This document shows, piece after piece, positions 1 through 62,289 of a stretch of 64,000 nt of DNA. Position 1 is the stretch's first letter; every line of letters begins with the position of its first letter. The stretch comes from a virus. Its lineage: Duplodnaviria > Caudoviricetes. The translations under genes were made by a program, and so were the position numbers. Location of the stretch: IMG/VR virus record IMGVR_UViG_3300008267_000012; one strand, given 5' to 3'. The notes below the pieces were generated by a model. It had not been told where the DNA came from. It ran no database searches and saw nothing but the letters and a program-made list of their open reading frames with translations.

Positions 1-569
1 AAATTATCAGGTGCTATAGTTCTTATGTTCTTTAATTCATTTATTTTTGTTGCACCAACTACAAACATAAGGTCAGATTTTCTTTCCCATGTTAAACTTG
101 TTTCAATTATATGTTCATATAATCTTTTTCCATTTTCAAGTTTTAACATTTGAAAATCATTTGAACCTTCATTTGAGGTTAAACCCAAAAGTATAGTTGT
201 TTTATTTTCATATTCAAGAAAAGGTTGAACAGAATCATATCCCATATATGGTGAAACTGTTGCAGCATCTGCATCCATGTTTTCAAAACATGATTTTGCA
301 TATGCATTTGATGAATTACCAATGTCACCTCTCTTACCATCTATAATAACATACGCACCCTTTCTTTTTACATATTCACATATAGTAACAATATCTATGT
401 TGCAATGCTCAAAGAAAGCAGCATTCAATTTATATGCTACAACATAATCTATTGTAGAATTGATTATTGAATAACAAAAGTTGGTTGGTGATTGATTTAT
501 AATATATCTTGGGTCAGGGTCTAATCCAACACAAAGAAATGATTTCTTTTGTTTAATTAAATCAATCAT
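1..569 (-). CDS. pyrF: Orotidine-5'-phosphate decarboxylase, 3' end outside window
   Basis: Absent from the ORF track; my translation from ATG 569 gives MIDLIKQKKSFLCVGLDPD...YKLN...IIDGKRGDIGNS...TVSPYMGYDSV...FVVGAT, with the OMPDC DxKxxDIxN motif. Overlaps the upstream stop (TAATG). Confidence 0.93.
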   Translation of the reverse strand, partial: MIDLIKQKKSFLCVGLDPDPRYIINQSPTNFCYSIINSTIDYVVAYKLNAAFFEHCNIDIVTICEYVKRKGAYVIIDGKRGDIGNSSNAYAKSCFENMDADAATVSPYMGYDSVQPFLEYENKTTILLGLTSNEGSNDFQMLKLENGKRLYEHIIETSLTWERKSDLMFVVGATKINELKNIRTIAPDN

Positions 570-838
570 TAAAACGCTTCAAAAGGTTTTGATTTTTGTT
601 CTAAATAATCATTATGTAATGTTACCACATATTCAGCAAAATCAGAATCAATTGCTCCCATTGGAACTACTTCTGATATTTTATCAAATTTAACCTCATC
701 ACCTTCTTTAGCACCAAGTTGGTATTCAACAGGTTCAACAAGTTCAATGATTCTACACCAACAGTCTTCCCCTGTTTTGCAGGTAGATATTTTCCAAGGT
801 CTATTAAAGACTTCTTTTCTAGCTTCTGAGTACTTCAT
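569..838 (-). CDS. Hypothetical protein
   Basis: 89 aa ORF, coupled to both neighbours. Confidence 0.7.
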   Translation of the reverse strand: MKYSEARKEVFNRPWKISTCKTGEDCWCRIIELVEPVEYQLGAKEGDEVKFDKISEVVPMGAIDSDFAEYVVTLHNDYLEQKSKPFEAF

Positions 839-993
839 TTTTTTTCTTTAATTAGTTTTTCATATTCTTCTATACCCCTTTTAAATCCTTCATAATACCC
901 ATCCATAAAAGGAAGCACTTCTAATTTGTAAGTGTAATTTCTGTTTTTGCAGGATTTAGCTGCAAATTCTTTGATTTCAGCAAGAGTTTTCAT
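835..993 (-). CDS. Small hypothetical protein (52 aa)
   Basis: Own translation MKTLAEIKEFAAKSCKNRNY...EKLIKEKK*; fills the gap between neighbours, ATGA overlap. Confidence 0.65.
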   Translation of the reverse strand: MKTLAEIKEFAAKSCKNRNYTYKLEVLPFMDGYYEGFKRGIEEYEKLIKEKK

Positions 994-1011
994 GAATTAA
1001 ATATAAAACTT

Positions 1012-1272
1012 TTAATCTACTTCTTCAAGTTGAAGTTCTTTTTCTTTAACCAATTCTTCAATATCTTCAGGTGCTATACCAAATCTTTTTATATTATAAC
1101 CTCCATAGAGTTTGTTATCGGGTTGTACTTCTTCTAATACAAAATACTTATCATTTGTAAGTTTTGATATACACATCTTAACAACCGTATACTTCTCACC
1201 CTTTTTAATCCAATGTTTATTACTTATATCATTGGGTTTAGCAGAATCATCTATGCAAATTACTTTATTCAT
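1012..1272 (-). CDS. Hypothetical protein
   Basis: 86 aa ORF, MNKVICIDDS...; operon-like spacing. Confidence 0.7.
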   Translation of the reverse strand: MNKVICIDDSAKPNDISNKHWIKKGEKYTVVKMCISKLTNDKYFVLEEVQPDNKLYGGYNIKRFGIAPEDIEELVKEKELQLEEVD

Positions 1273-1504
1273 TTATTATTTCAACTCTATTATTTGTTTC
1301 AATCCATACCTTTGCTCCGCATGATAAAGGTTTATCTTTTGAATATACAATTCTGCATACTTCATTATTATCTTTATCATAGATTATTGCTTGTTGACCA
1401 TAATCATTTGATTTGTATGTCTTGCATGTAATCACAGGATTATTATCACCATTCTTTGCATTTGCTTTTATTGCATGTTGATTGACATGGATTATTGTTT
1501 TCAT
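1265..1504 (-). CDS. Phage hypothetical protein (KTIIHVNQH...KPLSCGAKVWIET type)
   Basis: Start moved to MKTIIHVNQ so it does not overlap the upstream gene; looks like a recurrent phage family. Confidence 0.7.
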   Translation of the reverse strand: MKTIIHVNQHAIKANAKNGDNNPVITCKTYKSNDYGQQAIIYDKDNNEVCRIVYSKDKPLSCGAKVWIETNNRVEIINE

Positions 1505-1511
1505 ACTAATT

Positions 1512-2255
1512 TTAATTAAAAATATCACTCTTACCAATCGCTTTTAGTTCGTTGGATAAATTAACAAACCAATTCGGTATATTTTTTTCAATATATTCAC
1601 CAATTATAGGCAATATTGATTTATAATATTCTTTGTTTAGTAAATATAACATAATACTATCACAAGTAGATTCTGCTTGATTAATAAGTCCATAATCAGT
1701 TAGTGAATATGTTGTTGGTATCTGTATCTTTCTATCAAAAAAATGCGCTATTTCGTGTAAAATATGTGATTTATCAAAAGTATCACCTGCCCAATCAATA
1801 CCCATTTCATCGTTAAGACTAGTTGGTGAACTATAAAACCCTTTTTTTGTGAAATATGATTTGATTTTATATTTTTCTAACAAGTCTATTAGTTCATTTT
1901 TATTTATTGATGTGGGTGAATAATTAAAAAATTTACTGTAATCAACTGTTTTTTCACGCAAACGTAATAGTTTTTCAGCATATAATTTATAATTAGAATA
2001 AGACCTAAAATCATTAATTGATTTAATGTCACTTAAATTAGGATTATCAATATATTCTTCATCGCTACCCTCAATATAATCATAGTTAAATTTATTTTTC
2101 AACATATTAATATATTTGTTTCGCTTTTCATCATCTTTACTTAAACCATCAATAATATCAACTAATTGCTGTATTTCTTCATTATCTGAAACTTGTTTTG
2201 TTTCATTCAAAACTTCTCTAATTGATTCCTTTATAATCCTTTTTAGTTGTAACAT
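1512..2255 (-). CDS. Putative zincin metallopeptidase with acidic N-terminal leader
   Basis: HILHEIAHFFD (HExxH) and downstream YG..NQAES..D; N-terminus LKRIIKESIREVLNE; CTATTTAT motif upstream. Confidence 0.55.
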   Translation of the reverse strand: MLQLKRIIKESIREVLNETKQVSDNEEIQQLVDIIDGLSKDDEKRNKYINMLKNKFNYDYIEGSDEEYIDNPNLSDIKSINDFRSYSNYKLYAEKLLRLREKTVDYSKFFNYSPTSINKNELIDLLEKYKIKSYFTKKGFYSSPTSLNDEMGIDWAGDTFDKSHILHEIAHFFDRKIQIPTTYSLTDYGLINQAESTCDSIMLYLLNKEYYKSILPIIGEYIEKNIPNWFVNLSNELKAIGKSDIFN

Positions 2256-2278
2256 AAACTATTTTAAGATAAATAGTT

Positions 2279-2485
2279 TTAAATATTCTCTATTTCCTTC
2301 CTAACTTCATTCCAATACTGAACAAATGGATTTGGTATCATAACTTTATTTAAATAATCCATAATCTCATCAACAGCAATTGAAGCACACTTTTTAACTC
2401 TTGTATTTGAACCTCCTAATGCAGTATCTAATACAACTAAATTGTATTTTTCAATAAGCTGTCTTGCTTTTTCTTTAGGATTCAT
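2279..2485 (-). CDS. Small paralogue family A (KEKAxxL...CAxIAVDE...YWxEVxxEIE)
   Basis: Start MNPKEKA downstream of TATATTTG at 2505-2512; shares motifs with 3393, 5569, 6862, 9722. Confidence 0.75.
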   Translation of the reverse strand: MNPKEKARQLIEKYNLVVLDTALGGSNTRVKKCASIAVDEIMDYLNKVMIPNPFVQYWNEVRKEIENI

Positions 2486-2574
2486 ATGTTTACTTTTTGT
2501 AAAACAAATATAAAGGTTTTTTAAAAATATATCACGCAATATTGCGGAAATATAGTGTTATAAACAATAAAAAA

Positions 2575-2781
2575 TTAAAGAGTTCGTCTGTAATCTTCAA
2601 TTAAATCATCTGAATACCAAGTACTAACTAAAAAATCATCACCATTTTCAATAAGTGAGTATTTCTTCTTATTCTCTTTAGCAAAATTCACAAAATCATC
2701 AAACTTGAACAATTTTTTATCGTTTCTTTTTGATGAGATTTCCGAATATCTTTTCCCTATTTCTTTTACAGAGTGTTGCAT
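2575..2781 (-). CDS. Hypothetical protein, cassette A passenger
   Basis: 68 aa ORF between the GTT core at 2557 and the attC-like site at 2801-2883. Confidence 0.7.
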   Translation of the reverse strand: MQHSVKEIGKRYSEISSKRNDKKLFKFDDFVNFAKENKKKYSLIENGDDFLVSTWYSDDLIEDYRRTL

Positions 2782-2800
2782 GTTTTAATTTTTTACTGTT

Positions 2801-2883
2801 TATAACAACAAATATAAGAAATAAATTTTGATTTATCTAATTTTTATAGGTAAAATTTACTTCTCATATTTGCAACCGTTATA
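2801..2883 (+). mobile_element. attC-like recombination site, copy 1
   Basis: 83 bp TATAAC...GTTATA imperfect palindrome; 21-bp inner stem (2809-2829/2852-2872) pairs fully on the bottom strand with 2 G-T pairs; 77/83 identical to 3143-3225. Confidence 0.6.
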
Positions 2884-2911
2884 TTCAATTAAACAAAATT
2901 TATGTGTTTAA

Positions 2912-3103
2912 TCAAAAAGGAAAAAACCATATTGAAGTCAAAGCACCACCAATAATCATAACTAATAGTGTTATCCAACTAATTTTTGAAATTTTAAACC
3001 ATAAGTCACTTCTTTTATTGTCACTATTCATAAGCAACCAAGAAGAACCAGCAATTGCTAATACTACAAAAATTAGTGTAAAATAAATCTTAAAGTAAAT
3101 CAT
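2912..3103 (-). CDS. Small two-TM membrane protein, cassette B passenger
   Basis: Two hydrophobic stretches; lies between the two attC-like sites. Confidence 0.7.
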   Translation of the reverse strand: MIYFKIYFTLIFVVLAIAGSSWLLMNSDNKRSDLWFKISKISWITLLVMIIGGALTSIWFFPF

Positions 3104-3142
3104 GTTTTTTGTTTTTAAATGTTTAAATTTTGTTTAACTAAA

Positions 3143-3225
3143 TATAACAACAAATATAAGAAATAAATTTTGATTTGTTTATTTTTTTATGGTAAAATTT
3201 ACTTCTCATATTTGCAACCGTTATA
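3143..3225 (+). mobile_element. attC-like recombination site, copy 2
   Basis: Two 34-bp arms identical to copy 1; the 15-bp spacer differs at 6 positions. Confidence 0.6.
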
Positions 3226-3231
3226 AAACAT

Positions 3232-3387
3232 TTAAGACTTCGGTATGTAAATCCTGATAGGGATGTCATTATTTCCACCATCTTCCCATTTAATAATGTA
3301 AAACTGTCCTTTTTCTGTATCGTAGTAAACGACATTATCCCTATCAGGTATCATTCCTTCGGGTAAATTTTGCATTTTCTTTGTCAT
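3232..3387 (-). CDS. Small hypothetical protein (51 aa)
   Basis: Own translation MTKKMQNLPEGMIPDRDNVVYYDTEKGQFYIIKWEDGGNNDIPIRIYIPKS*. Confidence 0.6.
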   Translation of the reverse strand: MTKKMQNLPEGMIPDRDNVVYYDTEKGQFYIIKWEDGGNNDIPIRIYIPKS

Positions 3388-3392
3388 TATAA

Positions 3393-3638
3393 TTAAATAT
3401 TTCCAATTTCGTTTTTAACTTCTTCAAGAAATGCTATTCTGTAATCAACCCATTCAAGTTGAGCAAATGTGCTGTTTTGTTTATATTCATTTAACATCTC
3501 ATCTACTGCTATTAAAGCACATACTTTTGCAGTTGGTTGATAAATTTGTGAGTAATCAGACATCTTTACTTGTCCTATATTCATATACTTATCTACTAAC
3601 TCTTGTGCCTTTTGTTTTGCTTCATTTCTTATTTCCAT
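3393..3638 (-). CDS. Small paralogue family A
   Basis: EAKQKAQELVDK...CALIAVDEML...EEVKNEIGNI. Confidence 0.75.
   Translation of the reverse strand: MEIRNEAKQKAQELVDKYMNIGQVKMSDYSQIYQPTAKVCALIAVDEMLNEYKQNSTFAQLEWVDYRIAFLEEVKNEIGNI
3596..3638. repeat. 43-bp exact direct repeat (second copy 4562-4604)
   Basis: ctaactcttgtgccttttgttttgcttcatttcttatttccat at both sites; encodes MEIRNEAKQKAQEL. Confidence 0.95.
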
Positions 3639-3639
3639 A

Positions 3640-3852
3640 TTATTTCTTTTTAGTATTTGTATTAATCATATCAGGTAAATCTTTTCCATTACCTAATTCC
3701 AATAACTTAAAATATTTTTCATCACCAACAATACCATCAACAGTCCATTCTGTTTTAATACCATTTTCATATATTGGTATTGAATATGTTGATGGTAATG
3801 GTTTGATAAATTCATTACCATTTAAATCGTATTTTTTATTTATCATCTTCAT
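3640..3852 (-). CDS. Hypothetical protein
   Basis: 70 aa ORF in a tightly packed operon. Confidence 0.65.
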   Translation of the reverse strand: MKMINKKYDLNGNEFIKPLPSTYSIPIYENGIKTEWTVDGIVGDEKYFKLLELGNGKDLPDMINTNTKKK

Positions 3853-4090
3853 TAATTATTTTAGCATAAGGTGTATGGCTATATCTATGTGCAGGTTCAT
3901 CCATTACAATTTCAAATTCTACTTCTTTACCATCCCATTCCATTATTTGTGCAACAGTACCAATCAATGATTCTTCATTATCAGGATGTAAAGGAATAGA
4001 ATCATAACCTGATGTTATTTCATCTCTCATAGCTTGATACCAAACAAACCACCCTGCTTTTGTTTTTTTAAGAATTCCTTTCATTTTCAT
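3836..4090 (-). CDS. Hypothetical protein
   Basis: 84 aa ORF, MKGILKKTKAGWFV...EWDGKEVEFEIV. Confidence 0.7.
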   Translation of the reverse strand: MKMKGILKKTKAGWFVWYQAMRDEITSGYDSIPLHPDNEESLIGTVAQIMEWDGKEVEFEIVMDEPAHRYSHTPYAKIINEDDK

Positions 4091-4286
4091 GTTCTTTATT
4101 TATTTTTCCAAGATAATACATATTAACTAAGAAATGTCTTGGTGAATAAGGTTTACCATTATAAAATAATTCTTCTGCTAACATATTAATTGTTTCAATT
4201 TCTAAATCAATTAAATTAGTTTGTCCATCAAAAGAATTATAAATTTCCCAATATCTTTTTGCGATTGTTTCTAAATCATTATTCAT
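4068..4286 (-). CDS. Hypothetical protein
   Basis: 72 aa ORF, ATGA overlap. Confidence 0.65.
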   Translation of the reverse strand: MNNDLETIAKRYWEIYNSFDGQTNLIDLEIETINMLAEELFYNGKPYSPRHFLVNMYYLGKINKEHENERNS

Positions 4287-4492
4287 CTTGTAAAACCTTC
4301 TACTTTATAAAATTCTTTTATAGTTATTTCTCTTGAACCAAATGGAAATTGTTTTAATGATTTTTCATATGTTTCTAACATTTCTTTTTCTGTTGGTTTA
4401 TAATCATATATTGATGAATAACTACCTTCTTTAGAAGAATGATTATACACATCAATTACAATTTTCCAATTAGTTGTTATCTTTGTCATCAT
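4283..4492 (-). CDS. Hypothetical protein
   Basis: Start moved to MMTKITTNW to reduce overlap. Confidence 0.6.
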   Translation of the reverse strand: MMTKITTNWKIVIDVYNHSSKEGSYSSIYDYKPTEKEMLETYEKSLKQFPFGSREITIKEFYKVEGFTR

Positions 4493-4703
4493 TATTTTCT
4501 TTTCTGTTATTGCAATAAAGTATTTCATCACCTTGACATATACAATCAGGATATGAACAACCTAACTCTTGTGCCTTTTGTTTTGCTTCATTTCTTATTT
4601 CCATGTTATTTTTAGCTTCTGCTAAAATACTTTCCTCTTGTTGTTTTTCACAATACTCACAAGTATTATCATCAGGTCTTTCACAAGTACATTTATTTTC
4701 CAT
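4470..4703 (-). CDS. Chimeric small ORF built from the 5' ends of two other genes
   Basis: MENKCTCERPDDNTCEYCE identical to the 7797 gene; internal MEIRNEAKQKAQEL identical to the 3638 gene. Confidence 0.6.
   Translation of the reverse strand: MENKCTCERPDDNTCEYCEKQQEESILAEAKNNMEIRNEAKQKAQELGCSYPDCICQGDEILYCNNRKENNDDKDNN
4647..4703. repeat. 57-bp exact direct repeat (second copy 7741-7797)
   Basis: ttcacaatactcacaagtattatcatcaggtctttcacaagtacatttattttccat at both sites. Confidence 0.95.
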
Positions 4704-4704
4704 C

Positions 4705-5172
4705 TTATTTATTTTTAATAATCTCAATTAATTTAACTAAACAAGATATTTCAGCATCTTCATAAGTTTCCCAATCTTTACTATAATGCTCTGTTTTTAG
4801 TGTATTTAATTTTCCTATTTCAAAAAAGAATAAATTATTTTCATTTTGAAATGGACTAACTAAATACCCATACTTCTCCCTAAAAAAACGAAAGGCTTGG
4901 GAGTAGGTTGGTACTGTCCATCTTTCATATGATTCTTCACCCTCTTCATCTTTACTACAAAATGCACCATATTTATCTAACTGACTATTAGTAACACTTA
5001 AAAAATCATCATTATAACAAGCTTTGTCACCTGTTACATTACCGCTACAATTAGCGTATTCGTAAATTTGTCCTGTATTATCTTCTTCATCATAATAAGC
5101 AAAACAAGGTTCATCAAACCCAAGTTTTTTGAGTTCTAATGCTTGTTGGTAAGGAATAAATTCTTGTATCAT
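4705..5172 (-). CDS. Paralogue family B (EFIPY..AL.LK.LGF.E.C...PTFSQ.FR.FREKY...KLIEI)
   Basis: Same N- and C-terminal motifs as 5174 and 6124. Confidence 0.8.
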   Translation of the reverse strand: MIQEFIPYQQALELKKLGFDEPCFAYYDEEDNTGQIYEYANCSGNVTGDKACYNDDFLSVTNSQLDKYGAFCSKDEEGEESYERWTVPTYSQAFRFFREKYGYLVSPFQNENNLFFFEIGKLNTLKTEHYSKDWETYEDAEISCLVKLIEIIKNK

Positions 5173-5173
5173 A

Positions 5174-5572
5174 TTATTTATTTTTAATTATCTCAATTAA
5201 TTTAACAATTGCAGCAATTTCAGCTTCTTGATAAGTATCCCATACACCACTATCATTTGGACCTTCATATTCTGACCAACCTCTATGTGTACCACCAATT
5301 GCATCATGCCATTCAAAAAGATAACCTGATGCGTTAGAATATAATGTTACTAATGTATTATACTTCTCTCTAAAAAAACGGAATGCTTGGGAGAATGTTG
5401 GTGCTGATATATAATTATCAACTTCATTATTAACATTTTCCATCTCACTATTTTTAACCAATTCTAATATATCACTTAGTTGGTCATTTTTGTAGTAAGT
5501 AAAACAAGGTTCATCAAAACCTAATTCTTTGAGTTCTAATGCTAAATCGTAGGGAATGAATTCTTTAGTCAT
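5174..5572 (-). CDS. Paralogue family B
   Basis: MTKEFIPYDLALELKELGFDEPC...PTFSQAFRFFREKY...EAEIAAIVKLIEIIKNK. Confidence 0.8.
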   Translation of the reverse strand: MTKEFIPYDLALELKELGFDEPCFTYYKNDQLSDILELVKNSEMENVNNEVDNYISAPTFSQAFRFFREKYNTLVTLYSNASGYLFEWHDAIGGTHRGWSEYEGPNDSGVWDTYQEAEIAAIVKLIEIIKNK

Positions 5573-5775
5573 ATCTTCTCAATTTCTTGTTTAACTTCTT
5601 GCCAAAATGTATAACCTCTATCAGCACCCATATGCCCTAATATCTCATTTAAAGCTATTAAAACCAATTCTTTTGTTATATGTTTTTCATGTGGAGAATA
5701 CTCTTCAGATAATTTGTGTTCTATACTATTATAGTATTTCCACCATAGTTCATCCGCTTTTTCTTTTGCTGTCAT
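5569..5775 (-). CDS. Small paralogue family A
   Basis: MTAKEKADELWWK...LIALNEIL...FWQEVKQEIEKI. Confidence 0.75.
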   Translation of the reverse strand: MTAKEKADELWWKYYNSIEHKLSEEYSPHEKHITKELVLIALNEILGHMGADRGYTFWQEVKQEIEKI

Positions 5776-5836
5776 AATATCTTCAAGATAGATTTTTTGC
5801 GAAAGGTAACACTTTTCGGTACTTTATGCAAAAAAT

Positions 5837-6118
5837 TTATTTATTTACCATTTGATTTCCCATAGTACAACCACAAACACCGCTTCCTCCATTTTTAGGA
5901 TTGCAAGAACATATTTCTGAATATGGTACTTCATTTGTTGGTGGAATATTGAAAGATGGTGACTGTAACATCTGAGTTCTTAAATTATCATTGTAAATGA
6001 TAGTATCATAATACTCAACAGCTTTTTTATTTACTTTTGAAGTAGAATTACTTGCTTCTGTATGCGCTTCATGCGCTTTTATTCCTGATAATAGGAATTC
6101 TTTAATTAATTTAATCAT
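5837..6118 (-). CDS. Hypothetical protein with C-terminal Cys cluster
   Basis: CSCNPKNGGSGVCGC, a possible metal site. Confidence 0.65.
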   Translation of the reverse strand: MIKLIKEFLLSGIKAHEAHTEASNSTSKVNKKAVEYYDTIIYNDNLRTQMLQSPSFNIPPTNEVPYSEICSCNPKNGGSGVCGCTMGNQMVNK

Positions 6119-6123
6119 CTTGT

Positions 6124-6606
6124 TTATTTATTTGTTTTTACTATTTCAATTAATTTAACAATTGCAGCAAGTTCTGCTTCTTCAAAAGTATCTGATTCTC
6201 TATCTCTAAAACTTTTCCCTGCTAAACTATCATATGTTTCCATTGGTTTTTCAATGTAAATATCATCTTCATCTCCTAATTCATCATCAGTAGGTAAAAC
6301 CAAACTGAAAACATCATAATCAAAAGATACTCCACCTTTGTACTTACTCCAACTTATTTCATGTACCAAATTATACTTCTCTCTAAACCATCTAAATGAT
6401 TGTGAAAATGTTGGAATTTGAATATATACTTCCATGTATTCAACATTAAGTATATCATTGACACTAATAGTTTCATTATCTTTATCAACTTCAATCCATT
6501 TCCACATAGTATGTCCATTTGGATTACCAACTCTTAAACAAGATTCATTAAAACCTAATTCTTTAAGTGCTAATGCTTGTTCGTAAGGTATAAATTCTTT
6601 AATCAT
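6124..6606 (-). CDS. Paralogue family B
   Basis: MIKEFIPYEQALALKELGFNESC...PTFSQSFRWFREKY...EAELAAIVKLIEIV. Confidence 0.8.
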   Translation of the reverse strand: MIKEFIPYEQALALKELGFNESCLRVGNPNGHTMWKWIEVDKDNETISVNDILNVEYMEVYIQIPTFSQSFRWFREKYNLVHEISWSKYKGGVSFDYDVFSLVLPTDDELGDEDDIYIEKPMETYDSLAGKSFRDRESDTFEEAELAAIVKLIEIVKTNK

Positions 6607-6872
6607 CTTGTTCTTGTTCTAAGAAAACTATTCACAAAATTTTCTGCATCTATTTTTGCTTTATAACCAAAAAAGATATAATTTAATTCTTCTTGTTGTT
6701 TTTTAATTAGCAATCTGCTGAACTTTGAATGAATTAAATAATATGATTGAAAATCTTCTTCCAATAAAGAATCTAATTTAGTAAGAATTTCTTCAAGTCT
6801 TTTTGATTTAGTTGTTTTCCAATACTTGTTAATTGTATTATCATAACACTCATTCCATTTGTCAATTGTCAT
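6603..6872 (-). CDS. Hypothetical protein
   Basis: Start moved to MTIDKW. Confidence 0.6.
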   Translation of the reverse strand: MTIDKWNECYDNTINKYWKTTKSKRLEEILTKLDSLLEEDFQSYYLIHSKFSRLLIKKQQEELNYIFFGYKAKIDAENFVNSFLRTRTR

Positions 6873-7074
6873 AATTTTCAATCTCAGTTTTAACTTCTTC
6901 CCAATAAGGTTTTGCCATTTGCCAATCTCCACTAGATGAGAATATGCCCATAGATAGTATCTCATCAACAACAATCAATGCACATTGCTTGGCTATAAAT
7001 TGAGCATCTTGATTTGGATACCAAGCATAGAATTTATCATATAATTCTTCGGCTTTTTCTTGTGGACTAATCAT
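6862..7074 (-). CDS. Small paralogue family A
   Basis: MISPQEKAEELYDKF...AKQCALIVVDEIL...YWEEVKTEIENY. Confidence 0.75.
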   Translation of the reverse strand: MISPQEKAEELYDKFYAWYPNQDAQFIAKQCALIVVDEILSMGIFSSSGDWQMAKPYWEEVKTEIENYDN

Positions 7075-7328
7075 ATTAAAAATATTTTAAGAGTTTTACC
7101 ATCATCTTGAAATTGTATCTCAACATCTTTAGCATTATAGTTTGTATATGCTCTACCATTATGAGGTGGTGAATGTTGTATAACTTCCACTCTATTAACC
7201 TTATCCAATATATTTACTTTTTGTTCTTTTTGCCATTTAACACCTGCAATAAATCCATCATGCCATAATGGTGATTCATTTGCAAATGATGCTTTATACA
7301 TTTCTTCTTCAAGAGTTTCTTTATTCAT
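7071..7328 (-). CDS. Hypothetical protein (ETLEE...FIAGVKWQ type)
   Basis: Start MNKETLEEE; shares FIxGxKWQ with the 7330 gene. Confidence 0.7.
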   Translation of the reverse strand: MNKETLEEEMYKASFANESPLWHDGFIAGVKWQKEQKVNILDKVNRVEVIQHSPPHNGRAYTNYNAKDVEIQFQDDGKTLKIFLI

Positions 7329-7329
7329 T

Positions 7330-7797
7330 TTATTTCTTTTTGAATTTATTAAACCATAAATTAAAAGCATATTCTCTTTTTTCTTCATAATCTAAACCTT
7401 TAGGATAGATTATGTCAGGAGATAAATCTTCAAACCTTTCTCTTGTAACCCAACCTTGAAAATGTGCTTCACTCATATCTTCCTCACTATACATCCTCTC
7501 CGATTGCCATTTAGCACCATTAATAAATGCTTTTCTTTTTTTAAAGCAATCAACATCTCTATTATAATTCCATTCGGGTTTATCTAAAGGATTTGAAGGG
7601 AATTCTCTATAAAAATTCTCAGCAGCTTCTCTTAATTCTGCTTCTTTCTCAACCTTTTTAGTTATTTCAGGGTCACCATGTTCATTTAACCAATCAGTAA
7701 TCATAGTTGGTTCTTTTAATATTTGTATTGAAGATTGTTGTTCACAATACTCACAAGTATTATCATCAGGTCTTTCACAAGTACATTTATTTTCCAT
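7330..7797 (-). CDS. Hypothetical protein (LREAAE...FINGAKWQSERMYSEED type)
   Basis: Start MENKCTC. Confidence 0.7.
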   Translation of the reverse strand: MENKCTCERPDDNTCEYCEQQSSIQILKEPTMITDWLNEHGDPEITKKVEKEAELREAAENFYREFPSNPLDKPEWNYNRDVDCFKKRKAFINGAKWQSERMYSEEDMSEAHFQGWVTRERFEDLSPDIIYPKGLDYEEKREYAFNLWFNKFKKK

Positions 7798-8008
7798 AAG
7801 TTGCTTGATAGTATTGTTCTGCATCAAAATTTACAAATAGTGGTGGAAGTTCTCCATGTTTAAATGCTTCTATTATCTGCTCCTTTTCTAATGCTTTTGC
7901 TTGCTCAATAATTTCAGGAATGCATTTTATTGAATGTATTTTGTCTGAATATATTATTTCAATCTTACCATTCTCAATCTGCTCTACTAGCCATTCAACT
8001 GCTGTCAT
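7787..8008 (-). CDS. Hypothetical protein (TAVEWL...EQAKALEKEQII type)
   Basis: Recurrent small phage-protein pattern. Confidence 0.7.
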   Translation of the reverse strand: MTAVEWLVEQIENGKIEIIYSDKIHSIKCIPEIIEQAKALEKEQIIEAFKHGELPPLFVNFDAEQYYQATYGK

Positions 8009-8013
8009 CTGTT

Positions 8014-8391
8014 TTACTTCAACCATCCTTCTTCTTTTAATTTATTTAAAAATATTTTAAAAGTCTTAATACCATTTTCACACATTGATTCCTTTGCATC
8101 TCTCATAGATTCAGGGTCATTATCCAATACACCTTTCATCCAAAAATTATTATCCCAATGGTCTTCTTTCCAAGGCTTTACCCTTTTATCAGTAAACTTA
8201 ATATCTATATTATCATAGAATGAACTTTCAAGGTCAGTTTCATAAAGCCTTGTTGCTTCCCAACAATACTTATCATCTTCATGTGTTGCTCCTTGATAAA
8301 AGTTTAATTCAAAATCTTCCTCTTCTTCTTTGTTTGCTAAATCTTCCCTGATATACCAAACTCCGTTTATTTCAATTCTGTCTTGCATCAT
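8014..8391 (-). CDS. Hypothetical protein
   Basis: Start moved to MMQDRIEINGVWYIRE. Confidence 0.7.
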   Translation of the reverse strand: MMQDRIEINGVWYIREDLANKEEEEDFELNFYQGATHEDDKYCWEATRLYETDLESSFYDNIDIKFTDKRVKPWKEDHWDNNFWMKGVLDNDPESMRDAKESMCENGIKTFKIFLNKLKEEGWLK

Positions 8392-8392
8392 A

Positions 8393-8767
8393 TTACCACA
8401 TCTTAAATACACAATCAATCCAATCAGGACATTCGCCCCTTGCAAATAAAACAACACCAATGATGTTTGTATAACCCAAATCCTCATAGAACTTCTTATG
8501 TTTAATCATAGAACCTCCTGTGGTTAATACATCATCAACAATTAAGAATGGAAGACTATCATCATCAATGCAATATTTTACTAATGCATCCTCAATTCTA
8601 TTTCCACCTGTTGGAACACCAACTACACCTCTGAAATTATATTTCTTGCTAATAAGATAAGCAAAGGTTTCAATGTCAGCATCAGTTAATGCATCACATT
8701 CAATTTTAAAATCAGATGGTTTACCTGAATTTAATATTATATCTACTTTTTGAAATAAGTTATTCAT
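8393..8767 (-). CDS. Minimal type I phosphoribosyltransferase, orotate PRTase (PyrE)-like
   Basis: PRPP loop LIVDDVLTTGGS, GVPTGG, N-terminal SGKPSDFKIECDAL; only 124 aa. Confidence 0.75.
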   Translation of the reverse strand: MNNLFQKVDIILNSGKPSDFKIECDALTDADIETFAYLISKKYNFRGVVGVPTGGNRIEDALVKYCIDDDSLPFLIVDDVLTTGGSMIKHKKFYEDLGYTNIIGVVLFARGECPDWIDCVFKMW

Positions 8768-9320
8768 TATAATTATCTTCTAATCTATTTAATTCTTTTT
8801 CTAATACGTCAATAGGATAACCTTTAGTAAAAATAGTATTAGGGTCAATAGCTTTAATCTGTTCAGCTAAGTCTTCTCTTTTACCTCTATTATAATATAA
8901 GTTTTCAATACCTCTTGCTAAATCATAGCATTGCTCATCACCAATGATATGTATTCTTAAATCATAATCATTCCATTTGGTTTTATAATCGGTAATCATA
9001 TAACCTTTGGTAATGTTTCTAAACAGATTATGTAAATACCAATTCCTTACCCTAACAATAGAGTTATCATTACCAAATAGATGTAATAATCTTAAAAACC
9101 ATCTTGGACACCACCAAGGTTTTGCTTTGTAATTCATAAAGATTACAAGTGGTTCTAATGCTTTGAATATATCACCTGAACTATTCCAAGGTACAGCACC
9201 TAAGTATTTATACTTCTGATTAAAGTCAGCAGGAAAGAATACTGCCCATATATCACTCAACTCAATATCCATTGTGTGAATGATTCCTTTCTTTTTACCT
9301 TTAAATATTATCATCTTCAA
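8760..9320 (-). CDS. Hypothetical protein
   Basis: 186 aa ORF, aromatic-rich (PWWCPRWFLR). Confidence 0.7.
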   Translation of the reverse strand: MKMIIFKGKKKGIIHTMDIELSDIWAVFFPADFNQKYKYLGAVPWNSSGDIFKALEPLVIFMNYKAKPWWCPRWFLRLLHLFGNDNSIVRVRNWYLHNLFRNITKGYMITDYKTKWNDYDLRIHIIGDEQCYDLARGIENLYYNRGKREDLAEQIKAIDPNTIFTKGYPIDVLEKELNRLEDNYNE

Positions 9321-9714
9321 TCCAAATTATACCTAGACCCACTTTAGTTTCAATTTTAGCACTAGGTAGTTTTTTTCTTATACCACATATATGAACAGCT
9401 AAACTATTATCTACAACAACAACATCTTTCCAAACATTATCAATTAATTCATCTCTTGGTATAACTCTATTTGCATTACTGTATAAATAATGTGCTAAGT
9501 CATATTCTCTTCTTCTTAGAATAACTTCAATACCATTATCAATGATAGTGCATTTGTTTTCATCAAATTTAAGTTTTCTGTCCTTTTGTTTGTTTAAAAA
9601 CTCAGACATAAAATTAAATATATTAACTGCATCTTCCCAATATGTATGTCCATTTTGATTAGCATACTCTTTTGCAGCTTTAAGAATCTCTCTTTTGGTT
9701 ATTGTTTGTAACAT
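9301..9714 (-). CDS. OmpR/PhoB-type winged-helix DNA-binding protein without a receiver domain
   Basis: LRRREYDLAHYLYSNANRVIPRDELIDNVW...NSLAVHICGIRKKL...IETKVGLG matches the Trans_reg_C pattern. Confidence 0.8.
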   Translation of the reverse strand: MLQTITKREILKAAKEYANQNGHTYWEDAVNIFNFMSEFLNKQKDRKLKFDENKCTIIDNGIEVILRRREYDLAHYLYSNANRVIPRDELIDNVWKDVVVVDNSLAVHICGIRKKLPSAKIETKVGLGIIWIEDDNI

Positions 9715-21485: not shown

Positions 21486-22841
21486 TTACTGTTCTTCCGT
21501 TTCAATATCAATAATATTTTCATCCAATTGCTTGGTTTCCATTTCAAGGAACATAAAAGATTTTAATTTGTAAGCATCAAAATTAAATAATTTATCTATC
21601 CTTAAAACTATTCCTTCGCTTGGAACTCTGTTGCCACAGAACTCACAATACTTTTCAAGATACTTCTCTTCAAGTAATTTGATTACTGCTTCATTAAACT
21701 CTTCATCACTCTTAATCTTTTTAAGTGATTTATCAAAGCCAACTAACTTACCAAAATAATATTCAGGTACATGGCGAATACCAAAGTGTTCACAATATGC
21801 TTTAATCTGTCTCCAAGATAATTCACTTACATTACCATCTTCATTTGTGAATGTAATCCTGTATACATATACTCTATAATGAACACCTTCAACATATTCA
21901 TCTTCATAGACTGTTTGAATACATCCATAATCATAACCCTTTTGAATATACGCACCATCTCTTGTATATCCAACTATCTCACCATATAAGGTATAACCTT
22001 TTTGAACTGCATATTCAAAGGTTCTTGCGACATCTCCCCAAACATCACTTGAGTAATAATGATTTGCTTGTGTATTCAAATCATCATTCTTAATAACCCT
22101 TCTTGATGAATAAAGCAAATCATATACTTTATCATTTATGTTTACACCTAACTTCTTTAATACTTTTTCAACAAATGATAACTTGCGATAAGTAAGAAGT
22201 TTACCAAAGATTACAGATGTACCATGTAGCTTTGCTGTGATTGATACATAATCATTTCTATTAACCTTATGGATATTCTTTCTAAGGTGTTCTGTATCAA
22301 TATGGAATCTGAATTGATTCTCAACAACTCTTGAAACCTTCTTAGCTAATTTCTTATCAGATTTAACACCTGATTTTCTTTGGTCTTGAACAACATATTT
22401 CTTTACAATAACTTCATCACCAACTGAATCAAACTCTTCACCAATACTATCAACATCAATAAGTCTATTAAATGATGAAAATGTTGAAACAGCATCAATA
22501 AAGTCTTGCGCTCTAATTAAGAAACCTTGTGATGGTTCACTTCTAAGTCTAACTGCTTTTACTCTTCCCTTTGAACCAAAGAAACCTTTCATTGTTTTAT
22601 CTCTGTTAAGAGACTTATCTGAATATAAATTCAAATAAGAAAGGATTCTTGAATCAATTTGACATTCAAGTGGGAAATAGATACAGATGTCATGTTCCTT
22701 ATATGATAGGTCAGCATAGATTCTTGCATGGTCAATGATAAACCCTTGCAATCTATCCGCATTGGGATGTGTAACAGGTTTTCCTAAAGCAACTACTTTA
22801 GCCAAGTAGTTTTTATTTGCATTTTCAGATATTCTAAACAT
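21486..22841 (-). CDS. RNA ligase (Rnl2 / DRB0094-like)
   Basis: HPNADRL N-terminal domain, motif I TAKLHGTS, LYGEIVG, motif IV EGIVLR, AYKLKS. Confidence 0.88.
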   Translation of the reverse strand: MFRISENANKNYLAKVVALGKPVTHPNADRLQGFIIDHARIYADLSYKEHDICIYFPLECQIDSRILSYLNLYSDKSLNRDKTMKGFFGSKGRVKAVRLRSEPSQGFLIRAQDFIDAVSTFSSFNRLIDVDSIGEEFDSVGDEVIVKKYVVQDQRKSGVKSDKKLAKKVSRVVENQFRFHIDTEHLRKNIHKVNRNDYVSITAKLHGTSVIFGKLLTYRKLSFVEKVLKKLGVNINDKVYDLLYSSRRVIKNDDLNTQANHYYSSDVWGDVARTFEYAVQKGYTLYGEIVGYTRDGAYIQKGYDYGCIQTVYEDEYVEGVHYRVYVYRITFTNEDGNVSELSWRQIKAYCEHFGIRHVPEYYFGKLVGFDKSLKKIKSDEEFNEAVIKLLEEKYLEKYCEFCGNRVPSEGIVLRIDKLFNFDAYKLKSFMFLEMETKQLDENIIDIETEEQ

Positions 22842-39251: not shown

Positions 39252-42200
39252 TTATTCATTAAAGTAGTAATATATTGATTTAATGTTTTGAGATGTAGAA
39301 CCGCTAGGACAAGCTGTACAAATAACATCAATTCTATACCAATTATTTAAAGTCGTTGGTTTAGGGGTTAATCTACTGAACATTTTATTTAGTCGTTCTT
39401 GTTGTGTAAATCTTATTGTTCCATCAGGAATCTCATCATTTTGGAATCTTGCAATTGGTGTAGGGTTTACTGTTAATTTTTTAACATAGAAATCTTCAAG
39501 ATATTCATTATTTGCATAAATTGTAGTTGCGACTTCATTACCATTACTATCAACACTAGTTGATGTTGAATTTTCTAATTTATATAATAAAACTCTATAT
39601 TTCGTTAAAGGACAAGAGGATAATAAATCAAAATTTAAAATATCTGTAAATGGTTCTATATTAAAATTATTAAGTGGAATACATGGTCTAGGATTTAATT
39701 TAACTTGTACAAAATTTGAATTTTGAAGAGGATATGAAACATTATTTGCAGCACTATATGCTCTTAAAATATATGAATACGCACCTGGGTTAGGTTTTTT
39801 ATCTTTTATTGAATCAACCTGTAAAAAACAATTATATTGTTGTGTAATCTGTACTCTTTTCTTGAAAACAAAAGGATTAGAAGTATTTGATTGATTTTTT
39901 TCATAAACATCCACGAAATCTATATTATTTAATTCATCAGGTTTAGGAGAATTAACTTCAATATATAAATTATAATTACCATAATTAAAATCAGATACAT
40001 CACTTAATTGTGGTATTTGTCCGTTTGGTGTTAAAGAATCTGAATTTCTAACATATAATTTAATAACTCCAAGAGGTACGGTACATGTTCTACAAATAGC
40101 TACACTAGTTGGTTCAGTAAATTCAACAGTAGGATTGTCAAGAATACTACTATATCTAAGACGATATAAATGTAAACCATCTGGTATATTTGTAAGATTG
40201 AAATTATAAGAACATGTTACGTTATAATTATAAAATTTAACATTAGTTGGCATTGCAGGTGTACAATTTGTATATGTTAAGGTTTGTCCTACATTTTGCC
40301 ATGTAGTATCAGATTCTCCTGTAGGTGTTGTTACAATTGTACCTTTTTGTAATACGAAATTCTGAATATTTGACTTAGCAAAAAATGTAGTTTTTAATGA
40401 AAGATTACCATCAAAATTAAAAGCACTATCAGGAAAAAATATTGGTTTTCTTTTAGGTAACCTTTTTTGATATGTTGTAACACTTGTTGTTATTGTTTGT
40501 GGTTCTGTTTCATTAAAAATATTACCATTTATATTTGCTGTATTTAGATTTTCTAAAACAGCCTCTAAATTATATTGATTTCCAGGTGTTGTTTGAAAAG
40601 ACCCTTCTGCAAGTATAGGACCTACAAATGTACCATCCGCTTTTTTAATTTCATTATCATCTATACTATATGTTTGTTCTGTAATACCTGTCTTTAATAA
40701 TTGTCTAGTATTATCTGGTCTAATTAAATTAATTGTATATCTATAAACATTATTTGGTATTGGTGAAGTTAATTTCCAATTACCTACTCTATCTTCAGGG
40801 TCAACATTTGGATTCAAAGGTATAGTATCATTTACAGCATTAGTAATTTCAAGTGTTGGGTCTCCTCCTTCACATAATTCTAATGGAATATTTCTTCCAC
40901 TTAATATTTCCATAGAACCTAAAACTAATGAACTAGCATATAAACTAGAAGAAATATTTTTATAAACAATATCAAATTGTAAACTTCTACAATCATCAAA
41001 ATTTCTTATATCTAATTTTATATCAGACCAATCAACTGTATTTTTATAATATCTATTATTGATAGGACTTCTTAAATATTCTGCCATAGGCTTATGGTAT
41101 ATTTTAATGGGTTCTATTTCTCCTGTGTATACATTTTTTGTATATCCAGGAAACCACGCTACTGTTCCTATTGGCATTGGTACGCTATCAAATTCAATAG
41201 GTGAGTTAAAATAATGGTTTAATACATAACCTGGTCTTATTAATCTTTGTGTATTAAAATAACCAGGTGTTAATTCACCATTATTAGTTAATGTATAATT
41301 ACCACTACCAGTGCCTTCAAATTGTTCCGCAGGGTCACCAAATCTATGAAATTTAAAATGAGTTTTATTTTTATATGATGACATATCTTTTAGATTTCCT
41401 TCAAAAACTAAACTTCTCCTTAATGTACCATTTTCAGTTACACCTCTTGCCCATATTTCTATCTTATCTGCACCAAAATTTTGACCTGCTCTTATATTAG
41501 CACTCCATCTCATGCTCTGCGCTCCTGTTGGTGCATAATAATAAACAATACCTGTATCGGGTACAGTAAAATATGAATAACTTAATTTAAACCTTAAATA
41601 GTTATTTTGATTGTCATCATTAAAATATAAAGGTGAACGTGCTGTATCTGATGTACCTTTTCTAAAATTTGTTAAACTAGCCCAATCAGGTAAGGATTTT
41701 AGATTTCCAAATTCATTATTAAGATAATCAGTAGCTTTATAATTACGCTTACGAGTTTCACCCCAATAATCATCTCTTATAGCCTGTTCATTATCAAATT
41801 GTACATCATTTGTTCCCCATAAATAACTTAAAGTCCAAAAATCATAAGTTTTATCAATTCTAGTTATTGGGTCATACCAATTAATATTAAAAGGAGGTGT
41901 TTGAATTATTGGTCTTAATCTATACCATTCACTACCTTCTGAAAAAATACCAGGAAAAACTCTATTTGCTCTAGTTCTATTTATCCATATATAATCTCTT
42001 TCATGAAACCAACTAGAAGAATGCGCCCATGCTTCTGGACCTTGTCCAAGCCATGTATTTGAAGCATCGTTTTGCCATGTTTCATTATACCCATAAGTAC
42101 TTCTAGCACCTAAATCAATAATTTTGTTAGTTGCAAATAATCTATCTCTACCATAAAAATATTTTATTGGTGACTTAGCATTTGATGGTAATCTTCCACC

Positions 42201-45200
42201 ACCTATATTTACAACACTAAATGTTTCATCATCATTATTTTCGTAAGTAATACCACTTGTAAAAACATTTGGTCTATAATATTCATAAATATTAAATGCC
42301 CAATTTTTCCAAGGTTTTTCTCTATAAGCATAGGCTTTATACATAGGTCTGTGTTCGTTTTTGAAAAATACACCACCACCATCATATGCCCCTAATCCAT
42401 AATTATATGTTTTATCAAATCTTGGGTCAGCTAATGCAGGGTCACCTACTGTATATTGTTCTTTTGCTTTTTCAGAACTTCTTATTGGGAAATAAAATAA
42501 TGTATTATAACTTGACCAATTATCTACATAAGTTGCATATTGGAATGGAGTATAATTAAAAAAATCAGGGCTAAATCCTTGTGCAAAACGAGAACTTACA
42601 TATGCATTTCTGTGAAAAACTGGGTGTTCATTATTTGCCACTCTTCCTGAGTAAAATGGGTCTAATGATGTTGATAAGTTACCCATACTCCATCCTGTAT
42701 TACTAAAACGAGATGGTGACCAAGGTTTCATACCTCTATTATAATATCCTGCTGTATACGTTGATGCTTCATTAAAAGCATTGCCTTCACCTGTTGACCA
42801 AGGACCAATAAATTCCCAATTCTTCATTCCAAAGGCTCTATTACCATATAAATTTTTAGTATTTAAATTAAATTGGTCATATTTAATTCGTGAAGTACCA
42901 CCTTTTAATGTAAAAGCACCAACTGAAAAACCAAATGGTGTATATGGTGTAAATGAAGCACCACTAGATGGACTAATTTTTTCTATAAAACTAAGCCTTA
43001 CAGGTGTTTCTTTTCTAGGATATACTCTAATATATTTTATAGCAGTATTTGAAATACAACCACTAGTATCTGTTAGTCTTAAAGATATTGGATAAATTCG
43101 CATTAAACTATCCTGATTACTATTATTAGGTATAAATATTCTAGCCCTAGATTTATTTCTAGCCCTAGGAATACCTGCTAATCCTGTAATTGGAAAATTT
43201 CCGTTTGCATTGGTTAAAGAAGCACTATTAAAACTCCATACATAACCAGTACTATCAAATCTAGAACCGCCAGGTCTATCCAAAGCTTCATAGCGTGATT
43301 GGACTTTCATTTGTTTTCCATACCAATTATCAAGATTTGTAAAATTATCTGATTCGTTAATTTGTTCTTCTGTTGTTAGACTATTATTTTTTATAACCAT
43401 TAATCCTTCATTTACAACATTATTTTCAATACCAGGATAATCGGCAGCTAAAACATTATTTCTTGCAAATATTGTATCACCTGCAAATTGATATTCAATG
43501 GCAGGTGATAATATATTTCTTTTATGCCATAAACTAACAGTTGCGTATGGATTAGGTCTTCCTCTAATCAAACCATTACCTCTAACACAATTTGGGTCTG
43601 TTGTACAATTACAATTATTTATATTTGGTCCATGTCCACTAATTTCTTCGCCCATCAGATTTAATCTAATTAAATCACCTGTTTTTTTATCAAATCCTTT
43701 TGAAAATGATACTAAATCAACAGGACACATATTATCTATTAATTGTAAATTCCACATTGAATATCTTGCATCCCAGTTTTGCCAACCAATTTTTAAATCA
43801 CCCTTTTTATCCCAATCATCTTCATCATAATTATTGTCTCCTGATGAATTTGTAGATTGTATATGTTTTCTATATATATAAGGCCATTGATAACCTACAA
43901 CTGGTGGTACTAAATCTTCTCTACTCCAACCGAAAGATGAACCTTGTGTTACCATTGTTGCTGCAATATATACTGCTAAAACAACCCATGTAACTGTCAT
44001 TGTTGTACCATTATGCCATAAGTTTTTATCATCGTCATTACCAAACCAATGTGCATAACCATTCCACCACCAATTTTCACCATTACCTCTTACTGTATGT
44101 TTAGATGCAAATTTTATTCTAAGTGGAACAAAAATACCTGCTGTTATTAAGGCATTACCTAAATTACCCCATACTAAATCCATAATATCAGTAGGTTCTG
44201 ATACGCCAGTTGCAAAACTAGGATACAAATAAGTTTGATACCAATGTCTAAGCCATGACGTATTTCCAGGTACATTTTTTTCAGATGGCGCTCTTTCACT
44301 TATATGCGGTGTACCTTCAGGACCTGAATTAGGAGAATAAGTATAATTATCAGCATCATAATTATTATTTCTTGCTAATGGTGCTAAAATTGTATTTCTA
44401 TTTGTTGTTGTCGTAAAATATCTTGGACCTAATTTTATTGCAATGTGATGAACTAACATCCAAACATTCCATTTGTCAATATTATATGCAAGATGATTTG
44501 AATTTCCAAATTGACCTGTTGTACCATAAAGTTCTTGAACATCTTGATAATTCCATTGTAAAACAGTATCAGTAGCTATTTCATCACCATCATATATGAT
44601 TTTATGCATAGGATATTGTTTGTAATTTATAGCATCACCATTTTTCCAATCTCCATTATTTGTTAATACATCAAAATATTTTGTATTGACATTTTCTAAA
44701 TCATAGGTATAATACCACATATTACCTAACAATGGTATTATTCCAGTTCTATCAGGTATAGTTTCAAATTTTGTATTATTAGGTAACCCATATATTTTAG
44801 TAGGATAAGAAATATATGGATGTGATACACCAATTGATTGTAGATGTGCGCCAACCTCATCAAATCCATTTACTTTAATATTTTGATATGAAACAGGCAT
44901 TTTTTTAGACAAATCATAATAATATACAAATGGGTCAATATTACCGAATAAAGTAGAATTATAACTTGATGGATTTGGTAAATTTAAAACATTATCATCT
45001 GATATATCTTTAGGTGCTACAAGCATTGGTAAATAATTGTTATGATTAAATGTGCCTGGAGGTATATTATAATTTCCCCAACGCATGTTCATACTCCAAC
45101 CAGTAAAATTATTTCCATTCCAATCATTGCTTTCGTTTGCAAAATTTTGACCACTATATTTTATTATATTTGCTCTTGCATTTTCATTCCTAATGAATTC

Positions 45201-61818: not shown

Positions 61819-61842
61819 TTATATATTTTTATATAAATAGTC

Positions 61843-62289
61843 TTAATCTAAAATTGACAAAAGATGATTTGGTTTGGTTTTCCACCATTCCTTTTCATTC
61901 ATAATAAACCCGATTGATTGAAAACAATTAACACTTAACTTATTATGATTTATATCTAATAAATACTTTAAATATCTTGCATTATAGTTTGCTCCTAATA
62001 ACTTATTAAATCTTTCTTTTACACCAATAGTGACTTTAAATCTTTTAACTAATAACTTTCTTTGAAGAGTTTGTTGTTCTTCAATAAACTTATCAACTGT
62101 TTTTGAAACAATGAATCCTGAAGCTATAGCTTCGCAAACAAATAATTTACCATTAAAATCTCTTATTAAAAGACAATGATTGTATTTTGATTTTAAAAAA
62201 AATCTTATTAAAAAGTAAAAGATTTTATTAAAGATTGAAATACCTTTTTCATTTCTAACAAATACAATATCCCAATCTTTAAACTGCAT
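61843..62289 (-). CDS. Permuted papain-like (YiiX/YaeF, NlpC/P60 superfamily) protein
   Basis: DIVFVR...SKYNHCLL...VCEA...GANY...NCFQSI: His before Cys. Confidence 0.7.
   Translation of the reverse strand: MQFKDWDIVFVRNEKGISIFNKIFYFLIRFFLKSKYNHCLLIRDFNGKLFVCEAIASGFIVSKTVDKFIEEQQTLQRKLLVKRFKVTIGVKERFNKLLGANYNARYLKYLLDINHNKLSVNCFQSIGFIMNEKEWWKTKPNHLLSILD

Follow-up and report, generated by a model that had tools for sequence, protein, structure and literature searches.

We conclude that positions 2,486 to 3,387 of the Caudoviricetes record IMGVR_UViG_3300008267_000012 (64,000 nucleotides, hereafter the window) probably harbour a two-cassette cluster belonging to a phage integron-like system, with a Xer-type tyrosine recombinase and hairpin sites that carry promoters. 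The cluster resembles the groups of attC sites without an integrase that are known as CALINs, because the recombinase itself is absent from the window. An earlier reading, made from the letters of this DNA alone (hereafter the sequence-only reading), had proposed that the phage captures or shuffles such integron-like cassettes, with a site doubling as a promoter, and our results support that proposal mainly through evidence from outside the window. This evidence comprises the anatomy of the cassettes and its generality among phage loci, covariation and strand bias within the sites, the adjacency of a recombinase gene to cassette arrays, and breakpoints at AAC| in relatives.

Anatomy of the two window cassettes

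Two imperfect palindromes of 83 nt, TATAAC...GTTATA, lie at 2801-2883 (core 1) and 3143-3225 (core 2), exactly where the sequence-only reading had placed them (0 matches were obtained in 100 shuffles), and each is positioned upstream of one small minus-strand gene. Both are minus-strand, attC-like hairpins of what we term type I; in core 1 a 3-nt bulge separates an outer stem of 5-7 bp from an inner stem of 22 bp, which is capped by a 22-nt loop, and core 2 has identical arms and a different loop. The minus (coding) strand, folded as DNA, pairs in an outer stem of 7 bp and, beyond the 3-nt bulge, in an inner stem of 22 bp that includes three G.T pairs; its dG is -12.3 kcal/mol, with z-scores of -5.1 and -3.7 for the two cores. 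Folding of the plus strand is weaker (-8.2 and -7.8 kcal/mol), since the three G.T pairs there turn into A.C mismatches. The preference for the bottom strand that had been claimed for these stems consequently stands, while the stem itself is counted as 22 bp with three G.T pairs instead of 21 bp with two. In its bottom-strand fold each core has the architecture of an attC site (two stems, an unpaired spacer and TAAC...GTTA borders), and the sites match the RYYYAAC/GTTRRRY consensus only in part. An Rfam scan of positions 2000-4000 returned only chance-level microRNA and snoRNA matches.

The proximal arm of each core bears a TATATTTG box two bases ahead of GTTA (minus strand, 2809-2816 in core 1 and 3151-3158 in core 2), which we take to be an instance of the Bacteroidota -7 motif TAnnTTTG and thus a putative promoter of genes A and B, respectively. 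The box that the sequence-only reading had located in each left arm is hence present in both cores, while its activity as a promoter is predicted from the motif. The same TATATTTG is found four bases before the ATG of the minus-strand genes at ~10470 and 15409 (genes ending at 10481 and 13319), which suggests that these genes produce leaderless mRNAs from host-type promoters; from this spacing, transcription of a cassette is predicted to begin close to the A of GTTA. The box is poorer in other core types, so that promoter function would not be universal to the sites.

Cassette A (2557-2877, minus strand) reads, in the coding direction, core 1, leader, gene A and a trailer ending in TAAC; it is the same unit as the 2558-2878 given previously, since the exchange point is ambiguous within the GTT at 2557-2559. 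Its trailer (2557-2579, minus; coding strand ...ATTGTTTATAAC) forms the distal arm of the R stem and overlaps the stop codon of gene A, and its leader (2782-2806, minus; coding strand GTTATAAACAGT...) serves both as the proximal arm of the R stem and as the 5' untranslated region (UTR). Gene A (2575-2781, minus) encodes 68 aa with no family match. Cassette B (2878-3219, minus; previously 2879-3220) has the same order of core 2, leader, gene B and a trailer ending in TAAC. Gene B (2912-3103, minus) encodes a protein of 63 aa that appears hydrophobic by eye and probably has two membrane spans; homologues at 61-87% identity exist in other loci, and a family search yielded only a sub-threshold match to DUF4149. 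Each unit therefore holds one minus-strand open reading frame (ORF), in agreement with the two single-gene, inverted cassettes described from the sequence, and the ORFs lie on the opposite strand relative to the orientation of the site, unlike those of promoterless integron cassettes.

The ends of each cassette are complementary to one another, as had been claimed: in cassette A, 23 of 25 positions pair between 2555-2579 and 2784-2808, and in cassette B, 24 of 30 between 2878-2907 and 3119-3148. The mismatches adjoining the GTTA ends are transitions that read as G.T on the minus strand. When either cassette is circularised in silico, the junction forms a single long hairpin composed of an R stem of ~26 bp, an asymmetric unpaired spacer and the 22-bp inner stem, with a predicted energy of -27 kcal/mol on the bottom strand, as against -17 kcal/mol for a site in its array context and -21 to -22 kcal/mol for the top strand of the circular junction.

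The upstream border of the array is marked by a trailer-like end at 3220-3231 (minus; coding strand ATGTTTTATAAC), directly after the stop codon of gene C (3232-3387, minus), and its matching leader is absent from the window. PHROGs and Pfam searches with genes A, B and C returned nothing usable. Downstream of the last cassette in the coding direction is a terminal junction (2535-2556, minus), TAAC|ACTATATTTCC followed by the small hairpin CGCAATATTGCG (2535-2546), which possesses neither a palindromic core nor a recombinase gene.

Cassette arrays, recombinase and breakpoints in related phages

The anatomy of the window cassettes follows a general rule. On the coding strand, a cassette consists of a core, 2 nt, a GTTA-N5-AGT leader, an ORF, an ATT-N5'-TAAC trailer and 5 nt, after which the next core begins; 62 such units were present in the first loci, and 155 distinct cassettes (median length 258 nt) were recovered beside recombinase genes. 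A single ORF covers at least 60% of the cassette in 109 of these 155, and ORF-less cassettes of 69-118 nt also occur. N5 takes 58 different values and covaries strongly within cassettes, being fully complementary in 189 of 268 leader/first-trailer pairs compared with 6% when trailers are shuffled, and the idea that a cassette's start complements its own end thus holds well beyond the two examples from which it was drawn. In a scan that did not presuppose AGT or ATT, R-stem position 11 was invariably a G facing a T on the coding strand, without a single Watson-Crick pair, while transition mismatches at the remaining stem positions comprised 43 G.T against 4 A.C on that strand. This ratio indicates selection for pairing on one of the two strands, in the form of single-stranded DNA or of RNA, and extends the bottom-strand preference seen in the window to the arrays at large.

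At least four unrelated core sequences retain one architecture (TAAC, 5 nt, arm, loop, complementary arm, 2 nt, GTTA), and it is consequently this design that is conserved and not the particular 83-mer of the window. An alignment of 41 distinct core copies supports the fold: three pairs show compensatory changes, one of them in 14 sequences, and G.U/G.T positions are conserved on the coding strand. Leader and trailer families are common to unrelated ORFs, and cassette ORFs are mostly unrelated to each other. Indeed, the possibility that they constitute one protein family was rejected, as an all-against-all blastp comparison gave 3 small clusters, and apart from the gene B pair no members aligned over most of their length. 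Empty cassettes were also observed: in two loci (L085 and L105), just upstream of the recombinase, the leader GTTATAAAA is joined to the trailer TGTTTTATAAC via ~9 nt with no ORF, and in a contig of run X2, at window 3232/2799, an empty cassette is enclosed by two type I cores.

One 25-mer of the left core arm has exact matches at 49 IMG/VR loci, on ~45 contigs of 4-464 kb, most of which keep the full palindrome. For a 48-mer of core 1, IMG/VR yielded no exact match. A scan of prokaryotes for the same 25-mer (185,579 species, one genome each) returned only 4 short contigs from metagenome-assembled genomes (MAGs), which are probably mis-binned phage DNA. Host chromosomes are thus without such arrays; the repeat arrays for which the sequence-only reading had suggested a search of host genomes were not found in this set, and a host origin of the element is rejected. 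The MAG contigs bearing the phage palindrome (L052-L055, from GTDB) had been binned as Microbacteriaceae, Gammaproteobacteria and Oceanospirillaceae.

Four of the first five large contigs that bear the element encode a protein of Pfam family PF00589. This recombinase family (~267 aa, catalytic residues kept, 71-72% identity between three contigs) is found at a minimum of 101 loci in IMG/VR, and at essentially all of the 74 loci with enough upstream sequence, the motif ...N5-TAAC|TA(T/G)NATATAT is located 27-47 nt before its start codon. The recombinase-proximal junction, TAAC|TATNATATAT, is a simple site with no palindromic core. Across the same 74 loci, the 4 kb upstream of the recombinase are dense in leaders and trailers on the same strand, with 7-41 trailers per 250-nt bin against 0-10 downstream and 0-7 on the other strand. 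Cores of the window's own type I occur inside recombinase-adjacent arrays (e.g. L075 and L073), and of the 6 large contigs with a full-length recombinase gene, 5 have a type I core 0.5-5 kb away from it. When read along the opposite strand, the loci are organised like an integron: a recombinase gene pointing away, a simple junction site, and a repeated series of G|TT, cassette and hairpin.

By NCBIfam scores the recombinase falls between XerA-type enzymes and integron integrases, below all cut-offs. It aligns full-length with XerA (PDB 4a8e, E = 8e-33), whereas its alignment with IntI4 (2a3v) is broken into two segments (query 19-173 and 210-258 against IntI4 16-174 and 260-308), which implies that ~49 residues of the IntI-specific region (the I2 helix region) are missing. 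On these alignments, the enzyme next to the arrays is Xer-type and not IntI; the sequence-only reading, which had suggested a search for an IntI-like tyrosine recombinase, was right in that a dedicated tyrosine recombinase abuts arrays in other phages, and wrong as to its type. Two interrupted copies of the gene were noted. In a 464-kb IMG/VR contig (L073:5295-7077) it is split into a 178-codon N-terminal frame and a C-terminal piece, separated by an opposite-strand, GIY-YIG-like ORF of 261 aa (5816-6601), and this may represent a homing-endonuclease insertion or an intron. In the other (contig G008, 318 kb, L049 region, 61289-62096), an in-frame TAA between residues ~135 and 136 marks a pseudogene or split gene, 0.5 kb from a type I core.

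Comparison of relatives places breakpoints repeatedly at the cassette border. Among freshwater loci, 16 pairs are at least 95% identical over the 400 nt after the recombinase-proximal junction, and in 9 of these, from five independent groups, the sequence before the junction is unrelated, with identity ending 3-6 nt before AAC| in each case. Among cultured phages, the closest relatives of the recombinase (35-40% identity) belong to Cellulophaga and Polaribacter phages. Ten isolates of the Polaribacter phage Freya, from one host, vary in length from 44.0 to 48.9 kb and have the integrase gene at varying distances from the record start. After joining of the circular records, we compared Freya_1, Freya_6, Freya_8 and Freya_10. 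With Freya_10 as the reference, Freya_1 is missing 4.9 kb that hold 12 small genes and Freya_8 is missing 902 nt, while in Freya_6 a stretch of 3.2 kb is replaced by 442 nt. Each of the four junctions falls directly after (C/T)AAC and has non-homologous sequence on both flanks, a pattern which, judged from the sequences, homologous recombination does not easily yield. The integrase of Freya has previously been read as a sign of temperate potential, and the arrays were not described (Bartlau et al. 2021, PMC8776804). In each of the 4 Freya isolates examined, the annotated gene that comes next after the integrase encodes an HNH endonuclease (L162:4969-5592, and in the same place in L163-L165).

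Similar discontinuities are found around the window cassettes. One lake contig matches perfectly over 2557-2824 and is unlike the window before 2557, a second metagenome contig has a loose end at 2555, and a third matches 2285-2562 and then diverges. Cassette B is shared with an otherwise unrelated locus (L062) at 86.6% DNA identity over 2877-3158 only; in L062 it stands among other neighbours, with a collapsed core on its upstream side and another hairpin core downstream. An identical gene C is present in a contig from a further sample, in which the small genes that follow it are not those of the window. The breakpoints at G/TT expected in related phages are accordingly observed as AAC| in five locus groups, at the four Freya junctions and in the window at 2555-2562 and 2877/2878, with the cut placeable only to within the shared 3-4 nt.

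Proposed mechanism and competing explanations

Under the integron-like reading, exchange would take place at AAC| (GTT on the other strand), and the likely enzyme is the conserved Xer-type tyrosine recombinase (~267 aa) that other phages encode right beside their arrays. Recombination would probably act on the folded coding ('bottom') strand, marked by the invariant G.T at R-stem position 11. In a circularised cassette, the two ends and the core are predicted to fold into one long attC-like hairpin with the AAC/GTT triplets at the exchange point. Given the host-type -7 box in the core, two bases before GTTA, each cassette would bring its own promoter. The parts of this scheme that we infer from sequence are the catalytic role of the recombinase, the folding of single strands, the circular intermediates and the activity of the promoter. 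On a more far-reaching version of this scheme our judgement is evenly balanced: that Bacteroidota phages have an independent integron-like means of gene capture, which uses a Xer-type enzyme without the IntI insertion, folded single-stranded sites, strand choice by a G.T pair and a site that is also a promoter, and that the window cassettes sit at a secondary site.

Several observations weigh against this interpretation. The 64-kb window encodes no tyrosine recombinase detectable by tblastn with family members or by a hidden Markov model search of all frames (E<=10), as the sequence-only reading had already stated of integrases, and the terminal junction at 2557 only weakly resembles the recombinase-proximal TAAC|TA(T/G)NATATAT junction. 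The recombinase found elsewhere is without the IntI-specific region, through which integrases recognise attC sites in their folded form. Extrahelical bases, the strand markers of integrons, are lacking from the consensus fold of the type I core; the earlier caveat that none was evident and that the sites are non-canonical was thus well founded, and the sites fall outside the canonical attC definition. Neither circles nor excision joints at cassette borders were present among the joints listed from the assembled contigs of four metagenomes, a result that is not evidence of absence because assembled contigs cannot show rare forms. Moreover, one contig (L158, JGI 3300008261) that is otherwise 100% identical to the window has a 138-nt deletion at 2826-2963, running from core 1 into gene B and so not located at a cassette border, which is either a hairpin-associated deletion or an assembly artefact. 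A gene A homologue that is 90% identical stands in an operon without cassette ends (L056), indicating that mobility is not general to every copy of a cassette gene. Finally, the strand bias and the 5'/3' complementarity are also compatible with an RNA structure such as a panhandle or processing site, and an RNA role may exist alongside mobility.

A role confined to RNA, in which the hairpin is a terminator or RNase III-type processing site, the leader-trailer panhandle stabilises or gates the mRNA and DNA mobility is incidental, could draw on the facts that all wobble pairs are G.U-compatible on the coding strand, that the predicted transcription start at GTTA would open the paired leader, and that the next hairpin comes directly after the trailer. 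We nevertheless consider it rather improbable, since it leaves unexplained both the exact AAC| exchange points and the adjacency of the recombinase, and since ORF-less cassettes of 69-118 nt exist, the same leader/trailer family surrounds unrelated ORFs, and pairing of the whole 5' UTR would be expected to hinder translation. The arrangement of 25-55-nt inverted repeats bracketing each gene, and the occurrence of cassettes in unrelated genomes, might instead recall cargo-carrying miniature transposons whose terminal inverted repeats are served by a transposase in trans. We regard this as very improbable: no target-site duplications were seen, units abut head to tail via shared hairpins, the associated enzyme is a tyrosine recombinase and not a transposase, and insertions concentrate at one junction beside the recombinase gene.

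An additional explanation, which we consider unlikely, is offered by the PeSL (promoter-early stem-loop) cassettes of T4-type phages, according to which the region would consist of regulatory modules (promoter-plus-terminator units between early ORFans) shuffled by general homologous recombination between cores. In its favour, small ORFans within a stretch of paralogous small genes are separated here by a core that combines a -7 box with a long hairpin, copies of the 80-nt core differ so little that they could sustain exchange by homology, the deletion in L158 is not site-specific, and PeSLs are known to yield similar ORFan indels and mini-circles (PMC2839356, PMC4122927). However, the exchange by homology within a repeated motif that typifies PeSLs is not what is found here: breakpoints fall on a 3-6-nt AAC core with unrelated, non-homologous sequence on either side, the recombinase-proximal junction is without any core, and unrelated core sequences keep one architecture. 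Furthermore, homologous recombination leaves unexplained the complementary cassette ends with their covarying N5 and the Xer-type recombinase gene abutting the array. The integron-like reading remains the one that we prefer.

Comparison with known systems and genomic setting

In the prevailing view, integrons are devices of bacteria and rely on the IntI-specific domain. The phage arrays share with them one small gene per cassette (mostly ORFans) in head-to-tail arrays, an imperfect palindromic site with two stems, an unpaired spacer and AAC...GTT bounds, a cassette start that completes its own site, a GTT/AAC exchange point and the better folding of one strand. In relatives, they also share a tyrosine recombinase gene at one end of the array, transcribed away from it beside a simple junction site. 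They differ, however, in that their recombinase is Xer-type (~267 aa) without the IntI-specific insertion, their R stem measures ~14-26 bp as opposed to 7 bp, an invariant G.T stands in place of extrahelical bases, and their genes are inverted, reading towards the recombinase from a promoter of their own inside the site. Moreover, they are carried by Bacteroidota phages instead of bacterial chromosomes or plasmids, with the platform (recombinase plus junction) at ~74 related loci and not in the window. Consequently, the system appears to work like an integron but is not a canonical one, as judged by the IntI-specific domain, extrahelical bases, gene orientation and promoterless cassettes.

Clusters of attC sites without an integrase have been reported from phages with canonical attC models, with no phage recombinase platform (Qi et al. 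2023, PMC9892861). As in the window, attC-like sites and small genes occur there in virulent phages with no integrase nearby, one example being a Polaribacter phage; yet while those CALINs were read as pieces of bacterial integrons, the sites described here form a family of their own that is tied to a conserved phage Xer-type enzyme. Likeness to PeSLs is likewise partial. Both systems place a promoter and a hairpin between ORFans in plastic early regions, where ORFans are gained and lost as self-contained transcription units (PMC2839356, PMC4122927). PeSLs, in contrast, have sigma-70 promoters and GC-rich terminators where the phage cores have a Bacteroidota -7 box, and they are thought to act via homologous recombination, with no end complementarity, fixed AAC/GTT point or recombinase.

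The substrate of Xer enzymes is a single double-stranded dif site of 28 bp, at which they resolve chromosome dimers. The array enzyme resembles XerC/D and archaeal XerA in aligning full-length with XerA and in keeping the catalytic residues, and differs in being located at the end of a hairpin-bounded cassette array; no dif-like site was noticed in the sequences examined, in which no dedicated search for one was made. Literature searches recovered no publication describing this system of cassettes and a Xer-type recombinase.

If the integron-like reading is correct, a phage-borne system with a plain Xer-type enzyme would show that cassette capture either evolved more than once or predates IntI. 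It would also explain the turnover, in large phages, of small early ORFans, which are likely to be host-takeover or anti-defence genes, by a concrete recombination system with a defined enzyme, junction site and hairpin sites. Additionally, promoter-bearing sites would constitute a new solution to the expression problem of distal integron cassettes, as captured genes would be expressed at once if every site is also a promoter.

The window is AT-rich (GC content ~28%), its sequence is contained in metagenome runs from lake and freshwater samples, and small minus-strand genes are tightly packed over positions 1-9700. An RNA ligase-like protein (phrog_968) is encoded at 21486-22841 and an ORF of 2491 aa lies at 39252-46727; together with a public contig of 0.2-1 Mb that has the window's genes, these point to a jumbo phage. 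A 178-kb IMG/VR contig from the sample that also yielded a 100% identical contig proved to belong to another genome. Tandem paralogous small genes extend across 2279-7100, comprising members of the phrog_21441 family at 2279-2485 and 3393-3638 (with further repeats near 5569-5775 and 6862-7074) and of the phrog_25117 family at 4705-5172 and 5174-5572, and cassettes A and B are flanked on either side by phrog_21441 paralogues.

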